Below are positions 1,007 to 3,036 of a stretch of 13,646 nt of DNA, one piece after another (the stretch's first letter is position 1; the number at the start of each line of letters is the position of its first letter). Both the position numbers and the translations under genes were made by a program. The DNA comes from a virus, in the UHGV virus genome UHGV-0885819; one strand, written 5' to 3'. The notes below the pieces were generated by a model. That model saw nothing but the letters and a program-made list of their open reading frames with translations. It made no database searches and was not told where the DNA came from.

Positions 1007-1330
1007 ATGATGATGCCAGAAAAACATGACCTGTTAGCCGCCATTCTCGCGGCAAAGGAACAAGGCATCGGGGCAATCCTTGCGTTTGCAATGGCGTACC
1101 TTCGCGGCAGATATAATGGCGGTGCGTTTACAAAAACAGTAATCGACGCAACGATGTGCGCCATTATCGCCTGGTTCATTCGTGACCTTCTCGACTTCGC
1201 CGGACTAAGTAGCAATCTCGCTTATATAACGAGCGTGTTCATCGGCTACATCGGTACTGACTCGATTGGTTCGCTTATCAAACGCTTCGCTGCTAAAAAA
1301 GCCGGAGTAGAAGATGGTGGAAATCAATAA
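1007..1330 (+). CDS. S: Class I holin S (107 aa; three consecutive ATG codons at 1007, 1010 and 1013, the third matching the lambda S105 start)
   Basis: Protein [39 protein letters not shown]... is almost identical to lambda S as I recall it, with three predicted transmembrane segments and a G-run ahead of the start. Confidence 0.9.
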
Positions 1331-2841: not shown

Positions 2842-3036
2842 GATAATGAAACCGGAATTTATTCTGGGCAACCAGTTACGGCAGTACAGCGAAACAACCC
2901 AAGCCAGTAAGTGGGGAAATAACACTGGCAGCCACTGAAAGATGAACCTCCAGCCTTATGGCAAAAAAGATTCTTTGTGGTGGCGGACTGATGGAAAGAC
3001 ATCCTAATCAAGCAACTACTCTACAGGGTCATAATT

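Follow-up and report, generated by a model that had tools for sequence, protein, structure and literature searches.

The window, that is, the whole stretch of 13,646 nucleotides that was analysed (UHGV virus genome UHGV-0885819), contains the late genes of a P22-like (IME10/CUS-3/Sf6-type) Escherichia coli phage or prophage. Over its whole length it shares 96–97% identity with IME10-like phages and with prophages of E. coli. The lysis genes are preceded by two tRNA genes and, ahead of these, by the 3' end of a Q antiterminator gene (PF03589); they are followed by full-length P22-type genes for the small and large terminase subunits, portal, scaffold, coat, gp4, gp10 and gp26. The presence of a lambda lysis cassette in such a P22-like background is a known mosaic. 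The tRNA genes, tRNA-Asn (GTT) at 609–683 and tRNA-Thr (TGT) at 689–764, both on the + strand, are located between Q and S, and homology to lambda begins right after them, at about position 766. An ORF of 166 aa (2303–2803, + strand), between Rz and the terminase genes, matches PF11195 (Thoeris anti-defense 2-like, E 1.8e-24) and is a candidate anti-defence gene of the late region. A decaying prophage was also considered, and no sign of one was found here: S, R, Rz, Rz1, both terminase subunits, portal, scaffold, coat, gp10 and gp26 are all full-length ORFs.

The lysis cassette and its holin

S, the first gene of the lysis cassette, occupies 1007–1330 (+ strand, 107 codons) and encodes a class I holin of the lambda family (PF05106 Phage_holin_3_1, E 2.5e-30, with a score of 105 bits where the cut-off is 23.8). 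It is followed by R, Rz and Rz1, the ends of which overlap as in lambda. The R endolysin gene (1314–1790, + strand, 158 aa) overlaps the end of S and is colinear with lambda R; its matches are annotated as R, endolysin or lysozyme, and no Pfam match was obtained for it at the default threshold. The gene for the inner-membrane spanin Rz (1787–2224, + strand, 145 aa; PF03245 Phage_lysis, E 5e-37) has the length of CUS-3 Rz. The outer-membrane lipoprotein spanin Rz1 (1986–2171, + strand; PF06085 Rz1, E 5e-19) is encoded inside Rz in the +1 frame, and its ATG at 1986 stands at the position equivalent to that of the annotated CUS-3 Rz1.

A total of 1,281 homologues of S were found, which are called 'phage holin, lambda family' where the source names them. 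The S DNA is about 99% identical to that of lambda, Sf6, CUS-3, HK544, IME10 and many other coliphages. From residue 3 onward the product is the 105-aa holin P0001, one residue (R105G) away from lambda S105; from this identity, three transmembrane helices and a charged C-terminal tail can be assigned to it. Each feature of the lambda holin family that was checked was found in the gene, which can be assigned to that family. The Arg105Gly change (A>G at 1319, GRNQ to GGNQ) leaves one positive charge fewer in the cytoplasmic C-terminal tail; the Gly105 allele is common in P22-like and lambdoid prophages of E. coli (at least 1,000 contigs).

A triple ATG at the start of S

The preliminary description of this DNA had reported that the holin start reads Met-Met-Met instead of Met-Lys-Met, that products started at the first or the second ATG lack Lys2, and that three potential initiation codons stand in a row. 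All of this was borne out. The sequence at 1007–1015 is ATGATGATG, which forms, in frame, the first three codons of the ORF 1007–1330, whose 107-aa product ends in AGVEDGGNQ. AUG1 (1007–1009, + strand) corresponds to the start of S107, the antiholin, in lambda, and AUG3 (1013–1015, + strand) to the start of S105, the holin. Codon 2 (1010–1012, + strand) is ATG in place of AAG, as seen in alignments to lambda and to a Logan contig described below; it encodes Met and is a potential new start for a 106-aa product. The 105-aa product of AUG3 is identical to P0001, annotated 'phage holin, lambda family' and present on 645 contigs. The dual-start layout is therefore present, with ATGs at 1007 and 1013 and an extra one at 1010. 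One defining feature of the dual-start antiholin motif, at least one Lys or Arg separating the starts, is absent, as codon 2 is Met. The gene is most aptly called an allele of lambda S whose dual start is degenerate.

Compared with lambda S (NC_001416, 45186–45509), four base differences were found in the whole gene: A>T at 1011 (Lys2Met), G>A at 1036 and T>C at 1240 (both silent), and A>G at 1319 (the common Arg105Gly allele). As a consequence, the product of the third ATG differs from lambda S105 by Arg105Gly alone. The states at 1036, 1240 and 1319 are common, and the T at 1011 is the sole unusual base of this S. Among 151 related loci covering the whole of S, 150 carry A at 1011, and 46 of the 151 have the S of the window except for this base. 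S in the window is thus the commonest E. coli S haplotype with one derived A>T transversion. Because 150 of 151 loci carry A at 1011 and 46 differ solely there, the triple ATG is one derived substitution in a known motif, not a compositional oddity.

Rarity and reality of the allele

In megablast searches with an 80-bp query, none of 1,219 places in complete E. coli genomes and none of 91 phage records matched it exactly. A 35-mer across position 1011, designed so that the wild-type sequence cannot seed it, found none in 5,426 complete E. coli genomes and 50,697 phage records, compared with 1,107 places in 1,047 complete E. coli genomes for the AAG version of the same 35-mer. Exact-pattern scans of IMG/VR, of the GTDB species representatives and of the JGI metagenomes did not find the ATG allele either. 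With codon 2 left free in the pattern, AAG was read in 156 of 156 matches, and Lys2 is present in all 114 S genes from IMG/VR.

The exact 107-aa MMM protein was nevertheless recovered on two Logan (SRA assembly) contigs in a collection of 15 billion proteins. One of them, ERR4158231 (our locus L001, MMM at 3001–3009), carries an S gene identical to that at 1007–1330, preceded by a Q gene of a different family (PF06530) and by an upstream region with seven differences in 250 bp. In this contig GGGGG is also changed to GGGGC (the equivalent of position 1000), so that the first Shine-Dalgarno (SD) sequence is weaker and the 'sdi' hairpin shorter (from −10.3 to −7.4 kcal/mol). The combination of GGGGC with MMM may represent a coupled change of start partition and N-terminal charge.

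A sequencing or assembly error, the true codon 2 being AAG, would affect a single base and would account for the absence of the allele from every curated collection searched. An A>T change outside a homopolymer is, however, an atypical consensus error, the same 107-aa protein is present on two Logan contigs, and ERR4158231 is an independent source, as judged from its different Q family and its seven upstream differences. An error is therefore very improbable. A private sequencing error as the main explanation was rejected since the identical MMM protein recurs in an independent assembly with another Q and another flank. The MMM allele is thus real, though very rare, and two phage backgrounds at least carry it.

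Natural variation at position 2

Among family representatives of the 107-aa class, the N-terminus is MKM in 73, MKKM in seven, MRM in five, MQM in two and MMM in one. Exact protein look-ups were then restricted to the single-step neighbours of AAG on the present S background. They returned MKM on at least 1,000 contigs, MNM on 31, MEM on five, MMM on two and MRM on one; MQM and MTM were found on no contig in these look-ups. Several different prophage mosaics, with every control element intact, carry the K2N allele (AAT; loci L165–L170, gene at 1501–1824), and so does one complete genome, that of E. coli FDAARGOS_1256 (NZ_CP069451.1, 3588312–3588346). In complete E. coli genomes there is thus one AAT place and no ATG place for the 1,107 AAG places. 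K2N and K2E share with the allele of the window an identical background protein, identical regulatory elements and the loss of the Lys2 charge; they differ from it in that they have no third start codon and, for K2E, in that a negative charge is added. Since K2N is found on 31 contigs and in a complete genome, and K2E on five contigs, loss of the Lys2 charge seems to be tolerated in nature. Loss of the basic residue can be described as rare and recurrent, the novelty of K2M being merely the added third start codon.

More distant holins present the same layout. The P22 gene 13-type (Met-Lys-Lys-Met) and Met-Arg-Met holins (P0018, P0081), found in P22-like phages that infect Salmonella and other enterics, are of the same Pfam family and likewise have two starts, with one or two basic residues between them, whereas there is none here. 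Holins of the Met-Gln-Met lineage, found in E. coli prophages (P0134; L159, 1501–1824), are 74% identical to the S product of the window. They have two in-frame AUGs separated by an uncharged codon, a hairpin upstream holds their SD sequence in its 3' arm, and an endolysin gene and Rz follow. In contrast with the present allele, this is a diverged protein, accompanied by a PF00959 lysozyme, and the Met-Gln-Met start is fixed in the lineage, for which 61 blocks are indexed in the collection, whereas MMM is a rare SNP.

As Lys2 is nearly invariant, the MMM allele may be mildly deleterious or disfavoured, and recent or transient, rather than a tuned alternative, although the low overall diversity of S makes this weak evidence. 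The 114 S copies from IMG/VR showed 31 non-synonymous variant states and 14 distinct proteins.

Two side observations were made on the public copies of S. First, exact lambda S start regions were present in assemblies labelled Cohnella, Pedobacter, Veillonella, Flavobacterium, Arcanobacterium (a 'plasmid' of 3,566 bp) and others (L123–L157). Many of these carriers are contigs of about 3.5 kb, and many 3.5-kb ENA contigs encode error-laden S proteins. The lambda S in these odd taxa looks like contamination of public assemblies by lambda control DNA. Second, three IMG/VR 'viral genomes' (among L003–L122) carry an S stop at codon 56 (W56*), where the classic Sam7 amber of laboratory lambda strains lies; this points to DNA of cloning vectors or of standard lambda in the data sets concerned.

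Translational control of the start region

According to a recent preprint, the partition of starts in lambda S depends on four elements: a GGGGG SD for Met1, an unusual UAAG SD for Met3, an upstream stem-loop over GGGGG and an intragenic stem-loop at nt 31–47. The same text gives an antiholin to holin ratio of about 1:2 resulting from these elements, about one third of lambda S translation beginning at Met1 (bioRxiv 10.1101/2025.05.14.654169).

All four elements are intact in the window, with the same sequences as in lambda. The upstream 'sdi' hairpin (AUCCCC-UUAUU-GGGGGU, 985–1001, + strand), predicted to occlude the first ribosome-binding site, matches the stem-loop placed at nt −21 to −7 in the preprint. 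GGGGG (996–1000, + strand) precedes AUG1, AUG2 and AUG3 by 6, 9 and 12 nt, respectively; its equivalent is annotated as a ribosome_binding_site in the lambda imm21 record OM418625, and its duplex with the anti-SD has an energy of −9.7 kcal/mol. UAAG (1001–1004, + strand) precedes AUG2 by 5 nt and AUG3 by 8 nt, and serves the S105 start in lambda, as stated in the preprint (bioRxiv 10.1101/2025.05.14.654169). The downstream intragenic hairpin (GCCGC-CAUUCUC-GCGGC, 1037–1053, + strand) matches the hairpin at nt 31–47 that, according to the same preprint, helps to set the start partition.

With ViennaRNA, the 6-bp upstream hairpin had the same energy in the window and in lambda (−10.3 kcal/mol in a 51-nt context), and the downstream hairpin was predicted in both. 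A disturbance of start choice through RNA structure was ruled out, as both hairpins and their energies are unchanged compared with lambda. In a longer context, the base-pairing probabilities of the AUGs depended on the context and barely differed between K2M and wild type. An Rfam search with the start region returned nothing relevant. Because AUG2 is flanked on both sides by starts demonstrated in lambda, its use as a start is plausible.

In summary, the locus resembles lambda S in its nucleotide identity, in the GGGGG and UAAG sites, in both hairpins and in the order and overlaps of R, Rz and Rz1. It differs in the ATG at codon 2, in the absence of an extra side-chain charge, in the third in-frame start and in its P22-like morphogenesis background.

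Expected consequences for lysis timing

What loss of the Lys2 charge does has already been studied with site-directed mutants. In the work of Blasi et al. of 1990, the inhibitor function of S107 was reportedly defined by the positively charged Lys2, and Steiner and Blasi are said to have shown in 1993 that N-terminal charge grades the lethal capacity of both S107 and S105. White et al., in 2010, reportedly found S105 formylated and S107 deformylated, and the retention of the formyl group by S105 is said to be explained by its TMD1 quickly leaving the cytoplasm.

S107 is S105 with an additional Met-Lys, hence with two extra positive charges, that of Lys2 and that of the amino group of the deformylated Met1 (PMC6116005). 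These charges block the insertion of TMD1, and S107 dimerises with S105 and inhibits it; phages that make S105 only lyse 5–10 min earlier (PMC6116005). PMC9636201 outlines the mechanism in the same way, an additional positively charged residue altering antiholin topology, and a faster supply of holin leads to a shorter lysis time, as put in the preprint (bioRxiv 10.1101/2025.05.14.654169). When charges were counted over the first residues, S105 (fMet-Pro-Glu-Lys-His-Asp) had a net charge of −1 and S107 of +1, and the MMM product −1 if formylated and 0 if deformylated.

In lambda, TMD1 of S107 is held in the cytoplasm by its N-terminal charge, S107-S105 dimers are non-productive and hole formation is delayed. 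In the window, with the partition machinery unchanged, translation would start at AUG1 and AUG3, and probably at the new AUG2 as well. The 107-aa (MMMPEK...) and 106-aa (MMPEK...) products, having no extra side-chain charge, would insert like S105 and behave as holin effectors. The approximately one third of S translation that normally yields inhibitor would then join the holin pool, and all S would count towards the triggering threshold. Lysis would be expected at least as early as with the S105-only (M1L) allele, several minutes before wild type, and the burst should be smaller to match. The shift in timing could be small, as the antiholin accounts for only a few minutes.

Most likely, then, the 107- and 106-aa products lose most or all antiholin activity, and lysis should occur somewhat earlier. 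To the more specific prediction, that the longer products insert like S105, act as effectors and bring about triggering at least as early as M1L does, we assign a probability of about 0.7. The phenotype proposed in the preliminary description, a weaker or absent antiholin with earlier lysis, agrees with the published S107/S105 mechanism.

The outcome expected here is that of the laboratory S105 allele of lambda, in which Met1 is changed to Leu and only the holin is made: no functional antiholin and earlier lysis. The two alleles differ in that M1L removes the upstream start and decreases the total amount of S, whereas K2M keeps the upstream start or starts, whose product would become an extra effector. 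As K2M keeps these starts, we infer that the total active holin should exceed that of M1L.

Discussion

The charge that may remain on the longer products has to be weighed against this prediction. If Met1 of the MMM product were deformylated, one extra positive charge would be left, and the product could be a weak inhibitor. The antiholin would then be weakened rather than lost, the free alpha-amino group of the 107- and 106-aa products slowing the export of TMD1, and the shift in lysis time would be smaller than for the S105-only allele. This proposal is in line with the deformylated Met1 being one of the two extra charges of S107 (PMC6116005). It would also make sense of the Met-Gln-Met lineage, where two starts and an SD within a hairpin are kept without a basic residue, as expected if the extension still acts. 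We consider it rather unlikely. The inhibitor function is said to be assigned to the charge of Lys2 by the mutagenesis of Blasi 1990 and of Steiner and Blasi 1993, and S105, which has a similar N-terminus, reportedly retains its formyl group, so that without Lys2 the longer products should retain it as well.

The loss of antiholin could also be of little consequence to the phage. If AUG3 dominated initiation, loss of the inhibitor charge would have no effect relevant to fitness, and MMM would be one of many rare missense variants drifting neutrally in a prophage. Rare missense variants of S are indeed numerous (14 distinct proteins among the 114 IMG/VR copies), K2N has spread into several prophage contexts, and the preprint calls the biological role of the antiholin unclear (bioRxiv 10.1101/2025.05.14.654169). 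Neutral drift is nevertheless unlikely: about one third of lambda S starts are made at Met1, as given in the preprint, S105-only phages lyse earlier (PMC6116005), and Lys2 is conserved far beyond neutral expectation, though the overall diversity of S is low.

Conversely, MMM could be a selected re-tuning of the lysis clock, in which a triple-start S gives three products that are all effectors, more holin and a shorter latent period. The pairing of MMM with a weakened SD in ERR4158231 hints at co-adjustment of start partition and N-terminal charge. Selection of this kind seems doubtful to us. If it were true, MMM would be a natural reagent separating the Lys2 side chain from the deformylated alpha-amino group in antiholin topology.

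The timing of lysis is central to the life history of phages, and its textbook molecular clock is lambda S. The MMM allele is a minor natural point variant of a thoroughly studied motif and not a new system, as its phenotype is predictable from existing mutagenesis and from comparable natural alleles; it leaves current views unchanged. Together with K2N, K2E and the Met-Gln-Met lineage, it indicates that versions of the clock predicted to lack the antiholin emerge in prophages of wild E. coli and survive there at low frequency, and these charge-losing alleles could help to establish the purpose of the antiholin.
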